From: a virus
DNA length: 64,000 bases
Strand: one strand, 5' to 3'
IMG/VR virus record: IMGVR_UViG_3300027896_005002
Coordinates: 59,488-123,487 of that record
Shown: positions 2,747 to 27,890 of the stretch, piece by piece
How the letters are laid out: every line of letters starts with the position of its first letter
How positions within the stretch are numbered: position 1 is the first letter of the stretch
Notes under the pieces: model-generated
Seen by the model: only the letters and a program-made list of their open reading frames with translations
What the model was told of the DNA's origin: nothing
The model's database searches: none
Position numbers and translations under genes: made by a program

Positions 2747-2823
2747 GGGCCTGTAGCTCAGCTGTATAGAGTGCGTGTCTTCGAAACACGATGTCGTCAG
2801 TTAAAATCTGACCAGGCCCACCA
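2747..2823 (+). tRNA. tRNA-Arg (anticodon UCG), CCA encoded
   Basis: acceptor gggcctg/caggccc, D-arm gctcagctgtatagagt, anticodon arm cgtgt-cttcgaa-acacg, aCCA. Confidence 0.75.
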
Positions 2824-2836
2824 ATTAGGAGATTCC

Positions 2837-3688
2837 ATGGAAAGTATAGACAATTGTCATAATTGTACAAAATGTATTTTACTAGATAGTAAATACTGTT
2901 ATAAAGATTGTAAGACTTGTAAATCAAAATTCTTATGCTTTACATTTAGTCGAAATAATGAAATTAGTATTTGCTTCGTTGACACAGCTGATAAAAATTA
3001 TATTGGTACAAGGAATTCAATACAATTGGGTTTATTAGATGAAGCAATTTTTTCAACATCTCAAACTATAGAAAAATATCTGAAATCTATCTTATTATAT
3101 AATAATAATGACATCCGTAAAATGGGCGGAAGAAATGGCCATAATATTTTAGATTTGAAAAAAGAAGCACAAAAATGTTTAAATGGATTTGATTTAGATA
3201 TAACTTATACTGTAGGAAAAACAAAATATTCTTTTTATGAAATAATCGACAAAAATGTTGACCGTTATGGTATAATTTCAGCACCAAACTTTCCTTTTTT
3301 ATCTTTATTAGATGATGCAGTTTTTAAAATTCGTCCTTATTGTAGAGACATAGATCTTGAAGCTTTAGTTTATAAAATAGATAAATTAGAAGTTTTGGAA
3401 ATGATTCCAATTAATAAATCAATTGGAGGTTATTTAGAAGAAATCATTAAATTTAAACCGACATCGTTTAATAATAAACTTTCATTGCAAAAAAAATGTC
3501 TTTATTGGGAAAATAAACATACTTTAGCAAGTGGAACGCAAACAATTCCAAACATAAAAAAATTTGGTGAACATTTATATTGGCCAAAATGTTCAAAATG
3601 TTTAAATAATTGGCGAGAAAATCATTATAAAGTAACGCAAATTCAAAAAGAATATTTAAAAACTTTAGACTATAAAATGTGCCTATAG
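2837..3688 (+). CDS. Cys-rich hypothetical protein (possible Rx4-6H/HEPN-like motif, speculative)
   Basis: ATG at 2837 preceded by aggag RBS; the listed ORF start at 2771 would overlap tRNA-Arg; N-terminal CHNCTKC...CYKDCKTC cluster; RKMGGRNGH. Confidence 0.35.
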   Translation: MESIDNCHNCTKCILLDSKYCYKDCKTCKSKFLCFTFSRNNEISICFVDTADKNYIGTRNSIQLGLLDEAIFSTSQTIEKYLKSILLYNNNDIRKMGGRNGHNILDLKKEAQKCLNGFDLDITYTVGKTKYSFYEIIDKNVDRYGIISAPNFPFLSLLDDAVFKIRPYCRDIDLEALVYKIDKLEVLEMIPINKSIGGYLEEIIKFKPTSFNNKLSLQKKCLYWENKHTLASGTQTIPNIKKFGEHLYWPKCSKCLNNWRENHYKVTQIQKEYLKTLDYKMCL

Positions 3689-4364: not shown

Positions 4365-5270
4365 ATGAAAAACACTGGCTTTTCTGAAATAACTACTGAA
4401 CGACTTTACTATAATAGTCAAGATCCTTGGTACATGGAAGTCGCTATTACTGGTCGTTGCAATTTTTCATGTAAATATTGCAATAGATTCAATAATGATA
4501 TTGATCTTGCAAAACTTACCTCTTTTATTCAAAATAATCAATTCAGACATATTCAAATAACAGGCGGTGAACCTACAGTTCACAATCAATTCTTTGAAAT
4601 AATGAATTTATGTAGAAGTAAAACCAAAAAACTTGGTCTTTCTACAAATGGTACTTTTGGTATTGATAATTATTTGAAAAGTCAAGCAGATATGTTTTCA
4701 GTGTCATTAGATGATTATGACATGGACATTTTGAAGAATAGAGGATATAATAGTCCAGAAAAAATAGTTGATACTATAAAACAACTCGTTAAATATAAAT
4801 ATGTTAATATTGGTCTTGTAATTGATTCATTAAATATTGATAGAATAGAATCAATAGTAGATTTTATTTTGTCACTCGGTGTTAATGATATAAAATTATC
4901 AACATCAACAAAAGACCAATTAATACCTAAGTTCAAAAAAGATTATATTAAATATCCTATTTTAAATTATCGTGTACAAAACTTTAAAGATGGTAAACAA
5001 ATGCGAGGAAATGCTTGCAAAAAATGTTATATTGCAAGCAGTGATGTTACTATAGTTGGTGACAGTCATTATCCTTGTTTGACTTATTTTAGAGAAAAAG
5101 GTACAGCAATTGGTAAAGTAAATAATGATTTGATGAAAGATCGTATTGTTTGGATGAATGAACATGATTGTAGTAAAGATGATATATGTCAAAAATATTG
5201 TATGGATTTTAAATGTGAATTCAATAGAGCAAGAACGGAGATTGTATGTCAGTCAAACAAGTCATTGTAA
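4365..5270 (+). CDS. radical SAM enzyme with C-terminal Cys-rich (SPASM/twitch-like) region
   Basis: CNFSCKYC = CX3CX2C cluster, ITGGEP glycine-rich SAM motif; C-terminal CKKCY...C...CSKDDICQKYCMDFKC. Confidence 0.6.
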   Translation: MKNTGFSEITTERLYYNSQDPWYMEVAITGRCNFSCKYCNRFNNDIDLAKLTSFIQNNQFRHIQITGGEPTVHNQFFEIMNLCRSKTKKLGLSTNGTFGIDNYLKSQADMFSVSLDDYDMDILKNRGYNSPEKIVDTIKQLVKYKYVNIGLVIDSLNIDRIESIVDFILSLGVNDIKLSTSTKDQLIPKFKKDYIKYPILNYRVQNFKDGKQMRGNACKKCYIASSDVTIVGDSHYPCLTYFREKGTAIGKVNNDLMKDRIVWMNEHDCSKDDICQKYCMDFKCEFNRARTEIVCQSNKSL

Positions 5271-5635
5271 TTCGTAAAGATTTGAATATGAGAAAAGGTA
5301 AATGCATCGTGCAAGGTGCGCACGCTTCAATGAAAATATTTTTTGATCGGTGGCATAAAGTCGATAATCAAAATACTTTTATAACAGATTTCTTACCTGA
5401 TACTATGGTTCAATGGATTGAGGGATTATTTACCAAAATTTGTGTGAGTGTAAATTCTGAAGCCGAATTACTTGAAATTTATGAAAAAGCAAAAGAAGCT
5501 AATATACCAGTAGCTTTGATTGAAGATGCAGGTTTGACCGAATTTAAGGGAATATTAACTAAGACTTGTATTGCTCTTGGACCCGACGAATCTGAAAAGA
5601 TTGATAAATTGACTGGTCACTTATCTTTGCTATGA
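5246..5635 (+). CDS. peptidyl-tRNA hydrolase, PTH2 family
   Basis: KQVIVIRKDLNMRKGKCIVQGAHAS matches the PTH2 signature (vvVvRtDLgMgkGKiaAQcaHAa); overlaps preceding CDS end. Confidence 0.6.
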   Translation: MSVKQVIVIRKDLNMRKGKCIVQGAHASMKIFFDRWHKVDNQNTFITDFLPDTMVQWIEGLFTKICVSVNSEAELLEIYEKAKEANIPVALIEDAGLTEFKGILTKTCIALGPDESEKIDKLTGHLSLL

Positions 5636-6297: not shown

Positions 6298-7017
6298 CTA
6301 AATTTCTATGATATCTTCATATAAAATAGTAAAATTATCTATAACAACATTAGCATGGAAATGTCCACAAAAATATTTTTTAAATTGAATTCTATTACAA
6401 ACTTCATCTAAAAATTTTGCAGTAGGATCTAAATATTTACTATAATCATGATCATCCATCTCAATAATGTCAACACCTGAAGCTATCATAAATTTTGCAA
6501 TCATTCCTTGCGGTAATGTATGAGCTATTATATAATCTACTTTATTTCCATGTATTTCTAAATTAGTTATTGCATAATCCATTTCTTTATAAGAAGGTAT
6601 CTCATTCCTCCAAATACTTACACCTTCAATTCGACTAGCATCATCAACACTTTTTGCACCGCCCATACAAAAAAATGTTTTACTCTCAATCGTATATATC
6701 TCACCACGCTTTAAATAAAAAATACTATCAGATACTACACCAACTTTACCACCAAATTTTTCAATAATTGGCAACTCTGCTAATCTATCATGATTTTCAT
6801 GATTACCATCAATAAAAAGTATGGTAAATGGTTTTTCATTTAACCATTTTTTCCAATAAATTTCTTCTTTATCTGGTTCGTAAAACCATAACAAACCAAA
6901 ATCACCGGTAATTATCACATAATCATTTTTAGTAAGAGATTTACCTTGAGGAAAATTTGTAGTATTTAATTTCCGAATATCTATCGGAATATGTGTGTCA
7001 CCAGTTATATAAATCAT
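6298..7017 (-). CDS. calcineurin-like metallophosphoesterase (candidate 3'-phosphatase/2',3'-cyclic phosphodiesterase)
   Basis: GDTH, GDFG, GNHEN metallophosphatase motifs in canonical order. Confidence 0.65.
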   Translation of the reverse strand: MIYITGDTHIPIDIRKLNTTNFPQGKSLTKNDYVIITGDFGLLWFYEPDKEEIYWKKWLNEKPFTILFIDGNHENHDRLAELPIIEKFGGKVGVVSDSIFYLKRGEIYTIESKTFFCMGGAKSVDDASRIEGVSIWRNEIPSYKEMDYAITNLEIHGNKVDYIIAHTLPQGMIAKFMIASGVDIIEMDDHDYSKYLDPTAKFLDEVCNRIQFKKYFCGHFHANVVIDNFTILYEDIIEI

Positions 7018-7847
7018 ATCTCTATTTCATATAAATTACTAGGAAAACATGGACAAATATCATAGGGACAAATTATTGCTTTATTACTTAATTGACTCTC
7101 GACAGTTAAATTTTGTACAAATATATTTCCTAAATAACGATGACTACCCCAACATTCTCTAACAGTACCATCATTAAGTACTATCATATACTTATAGCCA
7201 GCCACACATACTTGACCTTTTCTACAAGTTGTTCTATTATATTCTAAAGAAAATTTATTATATCCATGCTCTTTACACAATTCCAAATAATGTTGTATTT
7301 TTAATAACTGTTCATCAGTATAATTAAACTTATGCCATAAAGAATTTTTTATCAAGAGAGGTATTAAATATATATTCTTACTTAAAAACCATTCAAACAA
7401 TTCATCATATTGTAATAATGCATAATCATCACAGACTTGCACTAACATAACATAAAAGCCTGCATCTTTTAATTTATTAATCTGCGTAACAATTTGTTCT
7501 CTTTTAAAATGCAGTCTATCTCTTTCTTTAATATGTAATGCTGCCATAATAAATTTAACTCGATCGACTGATACATTTTTAATAAAATCATCAACAGAAA
7601 TTGTTAAATTAGTATATAACGTAATACAATGCTGTTCAGTCAAAAATTTACAAATTTTAACAAAATCAGTATTTAAAAATAATTCTCCTCCAGACAATGC
7701 CCATAAACATTGATTTTTAAATCTACTTATAGCTTTTTTTACTTCATCAAATTTAGGCCCTAATGCACTTTTATCTTTCGGATCGTTAATACAATATTCA
7801 CAATTAAAATTACAAATCCTATTAAAATTCCAGTCTATAGTTAACAT
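7014..7847 (-). CDS. radical SAM enzyme with C-terminal Cys-rich auxiliary-cluster-like region
   Basis: CNFNCEYC = CX3CX2C; SGGE motif; C-terminal CRKGQVCVAGY...ECWGSH...ICPYDICPC; start overlaps stop of upstream peptide gene. Confidence 0.6.
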   Translation of the reverse strand: MLTIDWNFNRICNFNCEYCINDPKDKSALGPKFDEVKKAISRFKNQCLWALSGGELFLNTDFVKICKFLTEQHCITLYTNLTISVDDFIKNVSVDRVKFIMAALHIKERDRLHFKREQIVTQINKLKDAGFYVMLVQVCDDYALLQYDELFEWFLSKNIYLIPLLIKNSLWHKFNYTDEQLLKIQHYLELCKEHGYNKFSLEYNRTTCRKGQVCVAGYKYMIVLNDGTVRECWGSHRYLGNIFVQNLTVESQLSNKAIICPYDICPCFPSNLYEIEI

Positions 7848-7990
7848 TTATTTTCCTTCACTTCAACACATTCTGCTTTTAACCTTGCAGCTTTTGGACA
7901 CTTTCCGCATTCACTGCATCTTTCATGCGGTTTTGCTCCACCACATTCGTGTCGCATACTACAATGATCTTTTTTATTACAAATTACCAT
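7841..7990 (-). CDS. 49-aa Cys-rich peptide (8 Cys), translationally coupled to radical SAM gene
   Basis: Manual translation MVICNKKDHCSMRHECGGAKPHERCSECGKCPKAARLKAECVEVKENKC; its stop TAA overlaps rSAM ATG (atgttaa context). Confidence 0.35.
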   Translation of the reverse strand: MVICNKKDHCSMRHECGGAKPHERCSECGKCPKAARLKAECVEVKENKC

Positions 7991-7998
7991 ATTTTCCC

Positions 7999-8130
7999 TT
8001 ATGAATGATTATAATGTTTTTTACATTCTTCAGACCCTTCACCACGATTACAATAACCTTTCATATAACAATTTTCACATAAAGGTACTTTCTCTTTTTT
8101 CACAGATTGAGAAATTTGTCGTTCCAACAT
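7999..8130 (-). CDS. 43-aa Cys-rich peptide
   Basis: Manual translation MLERQISQSVKKEKVPLCENCYMKGYCNRGEGSEECKKHYNHS; CxxC-x5-C-x8-C. Confidence 0.3.
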   Translation of the reverse strand: MLERQISQSVKKEKVPLCENCYMKGYCNRGEGSEECKKHYNHS

Positions 8131-8151
8131 TAAAGTATATCTCTTAAATAT

Positions 8152-8230
8152 GCCCGTGATTGGAATCGAACCAACATTTTCAGCTTCCTTTACGATTATC
8201 TGTTTAGGAAACAGACTCGGCTACACGGGC
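8152..8230 (-). tRNA. noncanonical tRNA-like gene, anticodon CCU (Arg/AGG), D-arm reduced to gccgag
   Basis: acceptor gcccgtg/cacgggc, perfect anticodon arm tctgt-ttcctaa-acaga, 23-nt region taatcgtaaaggaagctgaaaat, T-arm gttgg-ttcgatt-ccaat; no D-stem partner. Confidence 0.45.
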
Positions 8231-9169: not shown

Positions 9170-9252
9170 TGGCGCCCGTGATTCGATTCGAACGAACATT
9201 TTCAGCTCCAATTACGATTAACTGCTTAGAAGGCAGTCTCGGCTACACGGGC
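9170..9252 (-). tRNA. noncanonical tRNA-like gene, anticodon UCU (Arg/AGA), D-arm reduced, CCA encoded
   Basis: acceptor gcccgtg/cacgggc-g-CCA, anticodon arm actgc-cttctaa-gcagt, then taatcgtaattggagctgaaaat, T-arm gttcg-ttcgaat-cgaat; same architecture as 8152-8230. Confidence 0.45.
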
Positions 9253-9337: not shown

Positions 9338-10129
9338 ATGGGTACTTCACAAGGTAACTTCAAAAGAAAACTTACTGGATTTTATGATAATGAAGATCGA
9401 AAAAAACAATGGAGTCAAGCTAGAATTAATACAAACAAAAATTCGGTCATTCTTAATCATAAAAAAACAATTCAGCAATTAACAAAATTAAAAATTAATG
9501 TTCAATGGTTTGAACTACAATTGCAACAACATCGTATTACCACAATTACTAAAAATTTAAAATTACTTGACATTAAACATCCAAAACTAGCACTTAAATA
9601 TTTAAAATCTTTATTAGAGCCAAAACGATTAAAAGAAATTGCAAAAGAAAAACGAACATCTAAAACATCTGTCACACTTAAAAATCGATTGAGAACTGAT
9701 ATCATACTGAAAAAGAAATATATTAAAAATCTAACAAAGAGAAATCATCATAAATATCGATCAAAAGGTGAATTACGTCTCAAACATTGGTTACAAAAAA
9801 CTTATCCTTACTATAATTGGAAAAGTATACATTTAACTTATAACAATTCAATTTATGAATTCGATATCTATTCAGAACAATATGACGATTTTTTCATTGA
9901 ATATAACGGCGCTTGTCATTATAAACAAATTCATAGTTTAGAAAACTTTCAGCGTATTCAATGTCGAGATGAACAAAAAATACAAATAATGAAAGAACTT
10001 AATAAAGAATTTCTAATCATCAAGGACAGCATGTCCTTTGAAGAACAAACAAAAACTGTGACAAAATTCTTTAATTTAAGTAGTAATCTTCAAATTAAAA
10101 AATTGGAGGTGCGGGGACACTTTATCTGA
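9338..10129 (+). CDS. homing-endonuclease-like protein with DUF559/Vsr-like C-terminal domain
   Basis: IYEFDIYSEQYDDFFIEYNGACHY...QCRDEQKIQIMKELNKEFLII fits the DF...iEydG..H...rD....l...G pattern; N-terminal KxLK repeats as in 1521-2498 and 25526-27031. Confidence 0.5.
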   Translation: MGTSQGNFKRKLTGFYDNEDRKKQWSQARINTNKNSVILNHKKTIQQLTKLKINVQWFELQLQQHRITTITKNLKLLDIKHPKLALKYLKSLLEPKRLKEIAKEKRTSKTSVTLKNRLRTDIILKKKYIKNLTKRNHHKYRSKGELRLKHWLQKTYPYYNWKSIHLTYNNSIYEFDIYSEQYDDFFIEYNGACHYKQIHSLENFQRIQCRDEQKIQIMKELNKEFLIIKDSMSFEEQTKTVTKFFNLSSNLQIKKLEVRGHFI

Positions 10130-10134
10130 TGTTT

Positions 10135-10940
10135 TCACACCAGTGTGGACTATCTCTTCATCCAATTGGATGATGGGCGCTAATAAAGGATTATTGATTG
10201 AGTTTCTCACCTTTTAGTCTCTGCACTTTCCAACCTACAAAACACTCTTTCAGTTGGCTTAGCTCAGGATTGCCATATCATTTTACTGATTTAGGGTTCC
10301 CTGAATTCACCCATTTTCTTCATCAATTGTTACCAATTGAGTCAACCATTTTGATTGAACCCCGGTCCAGAAAGTTTTCCATGACAATTACTACATGTTT
10401 ATTCTATTCTATCTTGAATACTCACTCCGTAAATAGACAAGCGTTCAATGAGTACTTCGTAAGTGTCACTTCGGTCCCCTTCTCTTTTACGCGTTCGGTT
10501 GTCCTATCCGTATATAAACAGTTCAAGTTGCTACGGCTCCGCTTAAACTTCGACCGCCTTTATTTAGGCAGCCATTGCTGGTGCCTTTGCGCACATTGCA
10601 GCGAACTGCAATGCGAACTGAGCACCGAAAACTGAACCAATTTTGTTGGCAGTTGTTGTTTCATTGGATGATTTAAGAGGCCAACCAATGAGTCCTCTAC
10701 ATGCAATTATCACTTCACCCAATCTGTCGAAACCTGACACCCCCATAATTTCAAAGAACATTAAATCTGGCTGCCGTGCCGCAGCCACCGTTTCATCGAA
10801 TAGGTACTTACCATGGCTATTCGCTATCCTCTACAATGATGCCGAAGCACTAACCACGACACGTCAAGCCAAAGGTATCATATGGTCTCAGCTTGACCGT
10901 CCCTGTGACAAGAGCAAAGGTCGTTAATCATGTCGCCATA
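10135..10940 (-). ncRNA. large GC-rich structured RNA; group I intron-like core (P7/P8/P9) at its 3' end on the minus strand; exon context unresolved
   Basis: Minus-strand motifs gtgCAGAGACUAaaagg ... gaAGAGAUAGUCCacacuggugug resemble P7 5'/3' strands (GACUA/UAGUC) of IC3 introns; many perfect hairpins (ggctgc-ggcacg-gcagcc; cattgcag-ttcg-ctgcaatg); GC about 45% vs 30% flank; listed ORFs inside are weak. Confidence 0.4.
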
Positions 10941-21750: not shown

Positions 21751-21777
21751 TTAAGGCCTATCATCACATTAAAAAAT

Positions 21778-21857
21778 AGGAGAGGAGGGATTTGAACCCT
21801 CATCTGCCACATACCGTTACGATTATCCGCCTTATAAGAGCGGCTCGGTACTCTCCT
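21778..21857 (-). tRNA. noncanonical tRNA-like gene, anticodon UAU (Ile/AUA), reduced D-arm; same architecture as 8152-8230 and 9170-9252
   Basis: acceptor aggagag/ctctcct, ta-ccgag, anticodon arm ccgct-cttataa-ggcgg, ataatcgtaacggtatgtggcagat, T-arm gaggg-ttcaaat-ccctc. Confidence 0.45.
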
Positions 21858-27803: not shown

Positions 27804-27812
27804 GTGATAATC

Positions 27813-27890
27813 AGGAGCGAAGAGACTCGAACTCTCATTTTCAACCAAATTACAAGTATATGGTTTTGGAGACCACACTGTTACGCTCCT
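27813..27890 (-). tRNA. tRNA-like gene with good acceptor/T-arm but irregular anticodon region (undetermined)
   Basis: acceptor aggagcg/cgctcct, T-arm gagag-ttcgagt-ctctt; middle ccaaaaccatatacttgtaatttgg has no clean 5-bp/7-nt anticodon arm. Confidence 0.35.

Follow-up and report, generated by a model that had tools for sequence, protein, structure and literature searches.

Among the described radical S-adenosylmethionine (SAM) enzymes closest to the phage enzyme considered here, some act on peptides and others on sugars. SkfB, the maturase of the sporulation killing factor (PDB 6efn), carries an N-terminal recognition element (RRE) of ~108 residues of the kind found in the biosynthesis of peptides made by ribosomes and modified after translation (RiPPs), and its gene stands beside that of the conserved precursor SkfA, along with genes for export and immunity. 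The precursors of the SCIFF/ranthipeptide group hold six Cys in ~45 residues, and their maturases are enzymes of ~450 amino acids (aa) with a full SPASM domain and two auxiliary clusters. BlsE, by comparison, is the cytosylglucuronate decarboxylase of blasticidin S (PDB 7vob) and is named beside BtrN, DesII, SpeY, and AprD4 as a sugar-modifying enzyme of the twitch type. The nearest curated family is that of STM4011, a protein of which, to our knowledge, the function is uncharacterized. Here we examine a string of four genes, including a radical-SAM gene (rSAM), in 64,000 nucleotides (nt) of viral DNA (IMG/VR record IMGVR_UViG_3300027896_005002, positions 59,488 to 123,487; this whole stretch is referred to as the window). 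The window derives from a phage contig of ~416 kb, ENA ERZ27247850 k141_2484546, and the string sits in its tRNA island:

8130 to 7999, minus strand: pep1, a hydrophilic open reading frame (ORF) of 43 aa with 4 Cys (from the ORF list)
7990 to 7841, minus strand: pep2, a hydrophilic ORF of 49 aa with 8 Cys (from the ORF list)
7847 to 7014, minus strand: rSAM, 277 aa (Pfam Radical_SAM PF04055, 32.2 bits; cutoff, 29.5)
7017 to 6298, minus strand: MPP, a calcineurin-like metallophosphoesterase of 239 aa (Pfam PF00149 Metallophos, 36 bits; cutoff, 21.5)

The four ORFs have the order, coordinates, and strand given in the initial annotation of this DNA, and both overlaps that it described are present: the pep2 stop and the rSAM ATG share 7 nt (ATGTTAA), and the rSAM stop and the MPP ATG share 4 nt (ATGA). 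The operon deduced from this arrangement stands as a tightly coupled, co-oriented string but not as a conserved functional cassette, because its parts dissociate in every direction among relatives. We favor, at a probability of about 0.55, the explanation that this is an accessory operon of mosaic origin composed of metal-binding mini-proteins, a radical-SAM enzyme probably acting on a sugar, and a generic phosphoesterase, and not the module of peptide precursor and maturase that had been proposed.

Genomic contexts of rSAM relatives

Among 5.8 billion proteins, a word-indexed search identified only five relatives of rSAM, to which those at loci L091 and L093 were added later. The closest relatives share 42 to 46% identity with rSAM and occupy five independent contexts, in none of which was a small Cys-rich ORF or a metallophosphoesterase gene found beside the radical-SAM gene. 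At two loci (L025 and L026) the slot held by pep2 in the window is taken by a gene of the Glyco_transf_7C/GT2 type (Pfam, 6e-14), the stop of which overlaps the start of the radical-SAM gene; the upstream ORF of L025 is truncated and was aligned by eye to the C terminus of the L026 glycosyltransferase. At L017, L018, and L092 (GC content of 32%), L091 (50%), and L093 (49%), the radical-SAM gene lies within a syntenic block reaching from capsid to adaptor, in the order P22-like major head protein, small protein, 232-aa protein (phrog_1574), collagen-like protein carrying GPTGP repeats, 172-aa protein, radical-SAM enzyme, 219-aa protein, and head-tail adaptor. Three unannotated flanking proteins at the L017-type loci contain DxD and WGxED motifs, which are typical of GT-A glycosyltransferases; searches of these proteins against Pfam and PDB profiles and hhalign comparisons with the L026 glycosyltransferase all gave nonsignificant results. 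As an observation in its own right, this block, which occurs in three small phages of very different GC content, may be a module for virion glycan or protein modification using radical chemistry.

An exhaustive profile search extended the rSAM family to at least 422 representatives at E < 1e-30, mostly of ~300 aa, with some in tandem or fused. Fusion partners in this wider family comprise GT2, sulfotransferase, SAM-methyltransferase, B12-dependent radical-SAM, and TPR domains. When 142 neighbor proteins from 43 bacterial and archaeal loci of the wider family were classified, other radical-SAM enzymes were the commonest (n = 35); glycosyltransferases were represented by GT1/GT4 (n = 8), GT28 (n = 6), and GT2 (n = 2), counts that may overlap on the same proteins, and further neighbors were B12-binding proteins (n = 4), methyltransferases (n = 3), and UbiA (n = 3). 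No credible case of a Cys-rich ORF abutting the radical-SAM gene was found at these 43 loci, so that the pairing of small ORFs with the enzyme is conserved neither there nor in the five contexts of the closest relatives. Because its clade is wired to glycosyltransferases, rSAM probably carries out sugar, nucleotide-sugar, or glycan chemistry.

pep2 and its homologs

The Cys residues of pep2 occupy positions 4, 10, 16, 25, 28, 31, 41, and 49. On its own, pep2 matched only itself in the word-indexed protein search and had no match in Pfam, NCBIfam, PHROG, or PADLOC. A pattern scan of IMG/VR identified a homolog of 51 aa (L121) on a 230-kb phage contig, and a profile built from these two sequences added P0155, P0156, and P0157, bringing the family to five members with the pattern V-I-C-x5-C-x5-C-G-G-A-K-P-H-E-x-C-x-E-C-G-x-C-P-x6-9-C. 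Seven Cys and one His are invariant in all five (P0155 to P0157 were compared by eye). Across core codons 12 to 32, the window copy and L121 differ by nine synonymous changes and one nonsynonymous change, which argues that pep2 is a real gene under purifying selection. The Cys/His core is conserved while the termini vary, and no leader precedes the first Cys at residue 4; this is the reverse of what is expected of a RiPP precursor, with its leader and hypervariable core. pep2 defines a small, unannotated family of ~50-aa phage proteins and is predicted to bind two metal centers. A 2x[4Fe-4S] ferredoxin was considered and rejected, as the spacing in the family (C-x5-C-x5-C-x5-H-x2-C-x2-C-x2-C-P-x6-9-C) departs from the two CX2CX2CX3CP motifs of such a protein and there was no match to Pfam Fer4.

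Elsewhere, pep2 homologs keep different company. At L121 (2995 to 3568) and L123 (4001 to 4580), the homolog lies directly before a YqeY-family gene, which it overlaps in L121. At L122 it follows, with an ATGA overlap, a 388-aa gene that resembles a pyridoxal phosphate-dependent decarboxylase by eye only, and at L124 it follows a gene for a small membrane protein. Phages with a pep2 homolog on a long contig include IMGVR_UViG_3300040801_001810. Neither a radical-SAM gene nor a metallophosphoesterase gene was found near the four homologs in the DNA present around each (~0.1 to 4 kb per side: at L121 and L123, ~3 to 4 kb on either side; at L122, only ~0.1 kb downstream; at L124 and L125, contigs of ~1 kb or less).

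The metallophosphoesterase

MPP has the canonical DxH/GD/GNHE/GHxH motif set, in the form of GDTH (residues 6 to 9), GDFG, GNHENH, and GHFH, in agreement with its assignment to PF00149. Within PHROGs it matched the metallo-phosphoesterase family phrog_1649 over its full length (1.3e-29). Homologs were identified at 60 IMG/VR loci (29 to 54% identity) and in 76 GenBank phage records; mycobacteriophages, Streptomyces phages, and gut phages are among the carriers. At none of the 60 IMG/VR loci was rSAM, pep1, or pep2 found within 3 kb of the homolog. MPP is a free-standing gene that is common in phages.

Motifs, family, and fold of rSAM

The motif C12-x3-C16-x2-C19 provides rSAM with the CX3CX2C signature of the Radical SAM superfamily, as had been noted initially; rSAM is a member of this superfamily, in which the motif ligates the SAM-binding [4Fe-4S] cluster inside a partial TIM barrel. 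Six further Cys lie toward the C terminus (residues 208, 214, 232, 260, 265, and 267). Residues C214, C232, C260, and C265 are invariant in the six closest sequences; across 44 members, three of the four remain so. A SPASM domain is recognized by the seven-Cys motif CX9-15GX4C-gap-CX2CX5CX3C-gap-C together with an above-threshold Pfam SPASM match (two auxiliary clusters), and a twitch domain is a truncated SPASM with three to four conserved Cys after a beta-hairpin, resembling that of BtrN, SkfB, MoaA, and BlsE. A full SPASM enzyme was rejected, as rSAM has no CX2CX5CX3C block and its Pfam SPASM match is partial and subthreshold (15.5 bits, where 21.5 is the cutoff; residues 214 to 247 only). 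Because of this partial match and the conserved C-terminal Cys pattern, the sequence points to a twitch-type enzyme with a single predicted auxiliary cluster site, C214/C232/C260 (plus C265); the SPASM/twitch-like C terminus suggested initially is thus borne out. An N-terminal RRE (PqqD-like) domain is absent, with the cluster motif already present at residue 12.

Comparison with family profiles, which had been suggested as a check, gave no confident alignment with QueE or with an activase of the NrdG type, QueE scoring far under its NCBIfam cutoff, and both assignments were rejected. Each of the 44 members of the rSAM family that were sampled matched NCBIfam NF038073 (STM4011), more members than any other family attracted, and each scored far under its cutoff (best E value, 1.2e-20). 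rSAM itself scored 29.7 bits against this model, the curated cutoff of which is 200, with residues 11 to 268 aligned to positions 11 to 254 of 278. STM4011 is therefore, by profile score, the nearest curated relative, a sister family and not the home family of rSAM, which joins a large, uncharacterized, STM4011-like twitch family as a new member. Literature searches on STM4011 and on phage radical-SAM RiPPs gave no result relevant to the family of rSAM. A role in defense or antidefense was also considered and rejected, PADLOC having returned only weak, N-terminal, viperin-like matches.

In profile searches against solved structures, SkfB was the best match (4e-15, full length), and TigE (8vpo), CteB, and SuiB were also matched; SkfB and TigE align to rSAM only from their residues 109 to 115 onward. 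An AlphaFold2 model built from 6 sequences had a predicted local distance difference test (pLDDT) score of 70.9 with a disordered C terminus, and rebuilding with 44 sequences raised this score to 90.2. Fold comparison of rSAM gave the following values:

BlsE, 18.7
SkfB, 17.8
Viperin, 17.0
SuiB, 16.8
anSME, 15.8
MoaA, 15.6
QueE and PFL-activase, 11.5
RNA-modifying radical-SAM enzymes, 8.6 to 11.0

The fold is equally near BlsE, with a sugar substrate, and SkfB, with a peptide substrate, and cannot by itself decide the substrate class.

pep1

pep1 consists of a Cys-free N terminus of 17 residues followed by a part with the arrangement C18-x2-C21-x5-C27-x8-C36-x2-H39. Neither tblastn against phages nor two degenerate scans of IMG/VR with 8-residue motifs turned up homologs in other phages, and there was no match in Pfam or NCBIfam. 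This orphan is probably a small protein that binds metal. Local likeness of pep1 and pep2 to CCCH zinc fingers (MBNL1, E = 0.1; Nab2, E = 3.6) and to the eS26 zinc knuckle was nonsignificant (E values of 0.1 to 3.6). The CCCH spacing C-x5-8-C-x4-6-C-x3-H differs from that of pep1 and of the N-terminal half of pep2, and no Pfam zinc-finger model was matched even at E values of up to 10.

Coding potential and packing of the gene string

Two small ORFs in this position exceed chance expectation. In shuffles of the 314-nt spacer (n = 20,000), an ATG-initiated ORF of at least 43 aa arose once in 4.4% and two in a row in none. Relative to local composition, Cys is in excess in pep2 (8 of 49 residues, P = 3e-5) and in pep1 (4 of 43, P = 0.024). 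Among the 268 small ORFs of the window, which has a GC content of 28 to 30%, pep2 ranks second in Cys density; spurious off-frame Cys-rich ORFs elsewhere in the window are not hydrophilic, unlike pep1 and pep2. All four are genuine ORFs, packed so as to be cotranslated. Two further features adjoin them:

8151 to 8230, minus strand: tRNA-like gene (Rfam RF00005, 38.5 bits; gathering score, 29)
6188 to 5772, minus strand: winged-helix (helix-turn-helix) protein of 138 aa (weak Pfam matches to HTH_24 and HTH_11, ~8e-4)

The pep1 ATG is 20 nt downstream of the tRNA-like gene. The winged-helix gene lies downstream of MPP on the same strand after a gap of 110 nt, and no terminator-like site was found between 6298 and 6188; it could be a final, uncertain member of the transcription unit. 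A scan for promoters and terminators performed no better than on shuffled sequence. The four genes would presumably be cotranscribed.

A DNA similarity search of GenBank phages with the whole cassette returned only a weak match to MPP. Four strain variants (L019 to L022) are 99.6 to 100% identical over the cassette and hence carry no information on the ratio of nonsynonymous to synonymous substitution rates. What sets them apart is confined to the pep1 start, where there is an indel, and to the cargo upstream of the tRNA-like gene, which has been swapped. The indel, of 7 nt in the start region of L021 pep1, leaves an in-frame ATG with a better Shine-Dalgarno sequence (AGGAGA). Other genes within ~3 kb encode the winged-helix protein, PTH2, a second radical-SAM enzyme, a 302-aa protein, and tRNA-like genes; no gene for a RiPP leader peptidase, exporter, or immunity protein was found over the same distance.

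Interpretation of the locus

As a mosaic accessory operon, the string would work as follows. A [4Fe-4S] cluster on C12, C16, and C19 of rSAM would reductively cleave SAM, and the resulting 5'-deoxyadenosyl radical would take hydrogen from a nonpeptide substrate (a sugar, nucleotide-sugar, or glycan being the likeliest, in line with BlsE, BtrN, and DesII), with the auxiliary cluster on C214/C232/C260(/C265) serving as an electron acceptor or substrate anchor. pep2 would fold on two metal centers, an N-terminal C-C-C-H and a C-terminal CxxCxxC...C, occupied by Zn or Fe-S, and pep1 on one; both may be small structural or nucleic acid- or protein-binding factors whose function is independent of rSAM. 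The phosphoesterase would work on a phosphoester substrate of its own, and the close spacing could stem from how densely genes are packed throughout the phage and from a common promoter, not from a shared pathway.

Several points weigh against this explanation. The 7-nt overlap of pep2 and rSAM is the geometry expected of functional partners. Two of the four contexts of pep2 homologs are on very short contigs, so the absence of a radical-SAM gene rests on little DNA there and is well tested only for L121 and L123. No glycosyltransferase gene was found adjacent to rSAM in the window, its substrate class being drawn from relatives that are only 42 to 46% identical, and the flanking proteins of the L017-type loci may be glycosyltransferases only at the level of their motifs. 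pep1 has a leader-like, Cys-free N terminus and no detectable homolog by which to gauge dissociation from rSAM.

The reading put forward in the initial annotation was that pep1, pep2, or both are RiPP precursors of the sacti- or ranthipeptide type, the Cys of which would be thioether linked or otherwise modified by rSAM. MPP would then be a tailoring enzyme or an unrelated gene. Cys-rich ORFs immediately upstream of, and overlapping, a radical-SAM gene of the SPASM/twitch group, the position of SkfB as top profile match, with TigE, CteB, and SuiB also matched, and the division of pep1 into a Cys-free N terminus and a Cys-containing C-terminal part all fit this reading. It was not borne out by comparison, however: the 42 to 46% relatives of rSAM lack such ORFs, and wherever a partner coupled to them has been identified, it is a glycosyltransferase; pep2 homologs have no radical-SAM gene in the DNA around them, and their core is strongly conserved and leaderless; rSAM lacks an RRE; neither SCIFF nor any other RiPP precursor model of NCBIfam and Pfam matched pep1 or pep2; genes for a protease, exporter, or immunity protein are missing within ~3 kb; and MPP homologs are unlinked to rSAM at 60 other loci. 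The case for RiPP precursors now draws mainly on adjacency and on the orphan pep1, and we consider it unlikely. A narrower version, in which pep1, alone or with pep2, is a leader-plus-core peptide cross-linked by an RRE-less twitch enzyme recruited from a glycan-modifying clade, so that pep2 replaced the ancestral glycosyltransferase partner in a newly evolved phage RiPP, seems more improbable still.

Radical-SAM enzymes depend on an external reductant, and pep2, perhaps with pep1, could be a small Fe-S or Zn partner of rSAM, either a mini-ferredoxin-like donor or a substrate-recruiting zinc finger, with translational coupling setting the stoichiometry. The 7-nt overlap, the eight conserved metal ligands of pep2, including the CxxCxxC-P segment, and the location of pep2 in the exact slot of the coupled glycosyltransferase of L025 and L026 are in keeping with such a role. 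Given that the Cys spacing misfits that of a ferredoxin, that pep2 homologs are coupled elsewhere to YqeY-family, decarboxylase-like, and membrane-protein genes, and that no such partner occurs in the 44 sampled members of the rSAM family or their neighbors, we regard it as doubtful. A module directed at RNA was the alternative offered by the initial annotation, which proposed Zn-ribbon peptides and an RNA-modifying enzyme; zinc-finger-like peptides would bind tRNA or other RNA, rSAM would modify a base or ribose, and MPP would heal or trim RNA ends. The surroundings invite this idea, with at least 24 tRNA genes, a transfer-messenger RNA (tmRNA) gene, PTH2, a gene for an RNase_T-family exonuclease, and a tRNA-like gene directly upstream, as do the weak CCCH and eS26-like similarities of the peptides and the YqeY gene adjoining a pep2 homolog. 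Small Zn-binding proteins are indeed the better fit for pep1 and pep2, but nothing found ties rSAM to RNA: the peptide similarities are nonsignificant and Pfam zinc-finger models unmatched, the low QueE score and the structural distances to RNA-modifying enzymes contradict such an activity, and the close relatives of rSAM occur in virion or glycosyltransferase contexts, not in RNA contexts. An RNA-directed module is accordingly improbable. The preferred mosaic of accessory genes makes the locus routine and no priority for RiPP discovery; were the RiPP reading true, the locus would provide a rare case of a peptide natural product encoded by a virus and made with a radical-SAM enzyme.

The tRNA island and other genes of the window

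ARAGORN listed 24 tRNA genes and missed the tRNA-like gene at 8151 to 8230, which is Arg-like, with the anticodon CCU in the Rfam alignment, a D-arm shortened to ~5 nt, and a variable region of ~20 nt. This gene is kept in L021, where all sequence upstream of it is replaced, and the conserved block has its 5' boundary here. A second tRNA-Arg-like gene at ~9173 to 9252 (minus strand; anticodon UCU, Rfam guided) is its paralog, with the same D-arm (~5 nt) and variable region (~20 nt). The two copies differ by compensatory changes in the anticodon stem. Neither is reported by ARAGORN, and the one at 8151 to 8230 alone passes the Rfam gathering score. The pair brackets a strain-variable gene, encoding in the window the 302-aa protein (phrog_8571, with a weak match to PD-T7-5), which in L021 is replaced by a DUF559/MTES_1575 endonuclease-like gene. 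Two more tRNA matches on the minus strand, at 21777 to 21857 (39.6 bits) and 27812 to 27890 (31.2 bits), exceed the Rfam gathering score but were not listed by ARAGORN; beyond the 24 reported, the phage may carry further noncanonical tRNAs.

A tmRNA gene at window positions 10100 to 10737 (minus strand) has its T-loop interrupted by a group I intron. Rfam matched tmRNA at 10352 to 10737 (80 bits) and Intron_gpI at 10126 to 10367 (91 bits), and ARAGORN reports no such tmRNA. The 5' exon ends in ...GGACCGGGGTTCAAT, and the postintron sequence ...GTGTCCCCGCACCTCCA restores the T-stem and the acceptor stem GGGGGUG/CACCUCC with a G3:U pair. Directly beside the split gene, on the opposite strand, is a 263-aa ORF (9338 to 10129).

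The second radical-SAM gene pointed out initially is present at 4365 to 5270 (plus strand; 301 aa) by ORF list and domain search. It overlaps the gene for the peptidyl-tRNA hydrolase PTH2 by 25 nt, the pair spanning 4365 to 5635. Its best families are prokaryotic viperin (PADLOC pVip, 5e-16), the radical-SAM maturase of a tungsten cofactor, and MoaA, and it is only 26% identical to rSAM. Between tRNA-Arg genes lies a 305-aa ORF (2771 to 3688, plus strand) with a Cys-rich N terminus, CHNCTKC...CYKDCKTCKSKFLC, and a HEPN match just below the Pfam cutoff (21.3 versus 22 bits); because its annotated GTG start overlaps tRNA-Arg(TCG), the true start is probably further downstream.

Comparison with known systems

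Nothing in the four-gene string is categorically new. MPP is an unremarkable member of the phage metallophosphoesterases of phrog_1649, such as those of mycobacteriophages, and its position after a radical-SAM gene is unique to this phage. pep2 resembles SCIFF/ranthipeptide precursors in length and Cys density and, like them, has a radical-SAM gene directly downstream; it differs in that its Cys begin at residue 4 and that the core, not a leader, is conserved. In contrast to the SCIFF maturases, rSAM has 277 aa and one predicted auxiliary cluster site. Compared with SkfB, it lacks the N-terminal RRE, and the small ORFs beside it are not co-conserved with the enzyme as SkfA is with SkfB. With the STM4011 family, rSAM shares the ~280-aa length class and a full-length alignment, yet its score is far under the curated cutoff. 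Phage members of the rSAM family occur repeatedly with glycosyltransferase genes or between capsid and adaptor genes, a hint of radical chemistry in the modification of virion or cell-surface glycans. BlsE, which acts on a sugar, belongs to the group closest in fold to rSAM, yet the two share 11% identity and no match at the sequence level.

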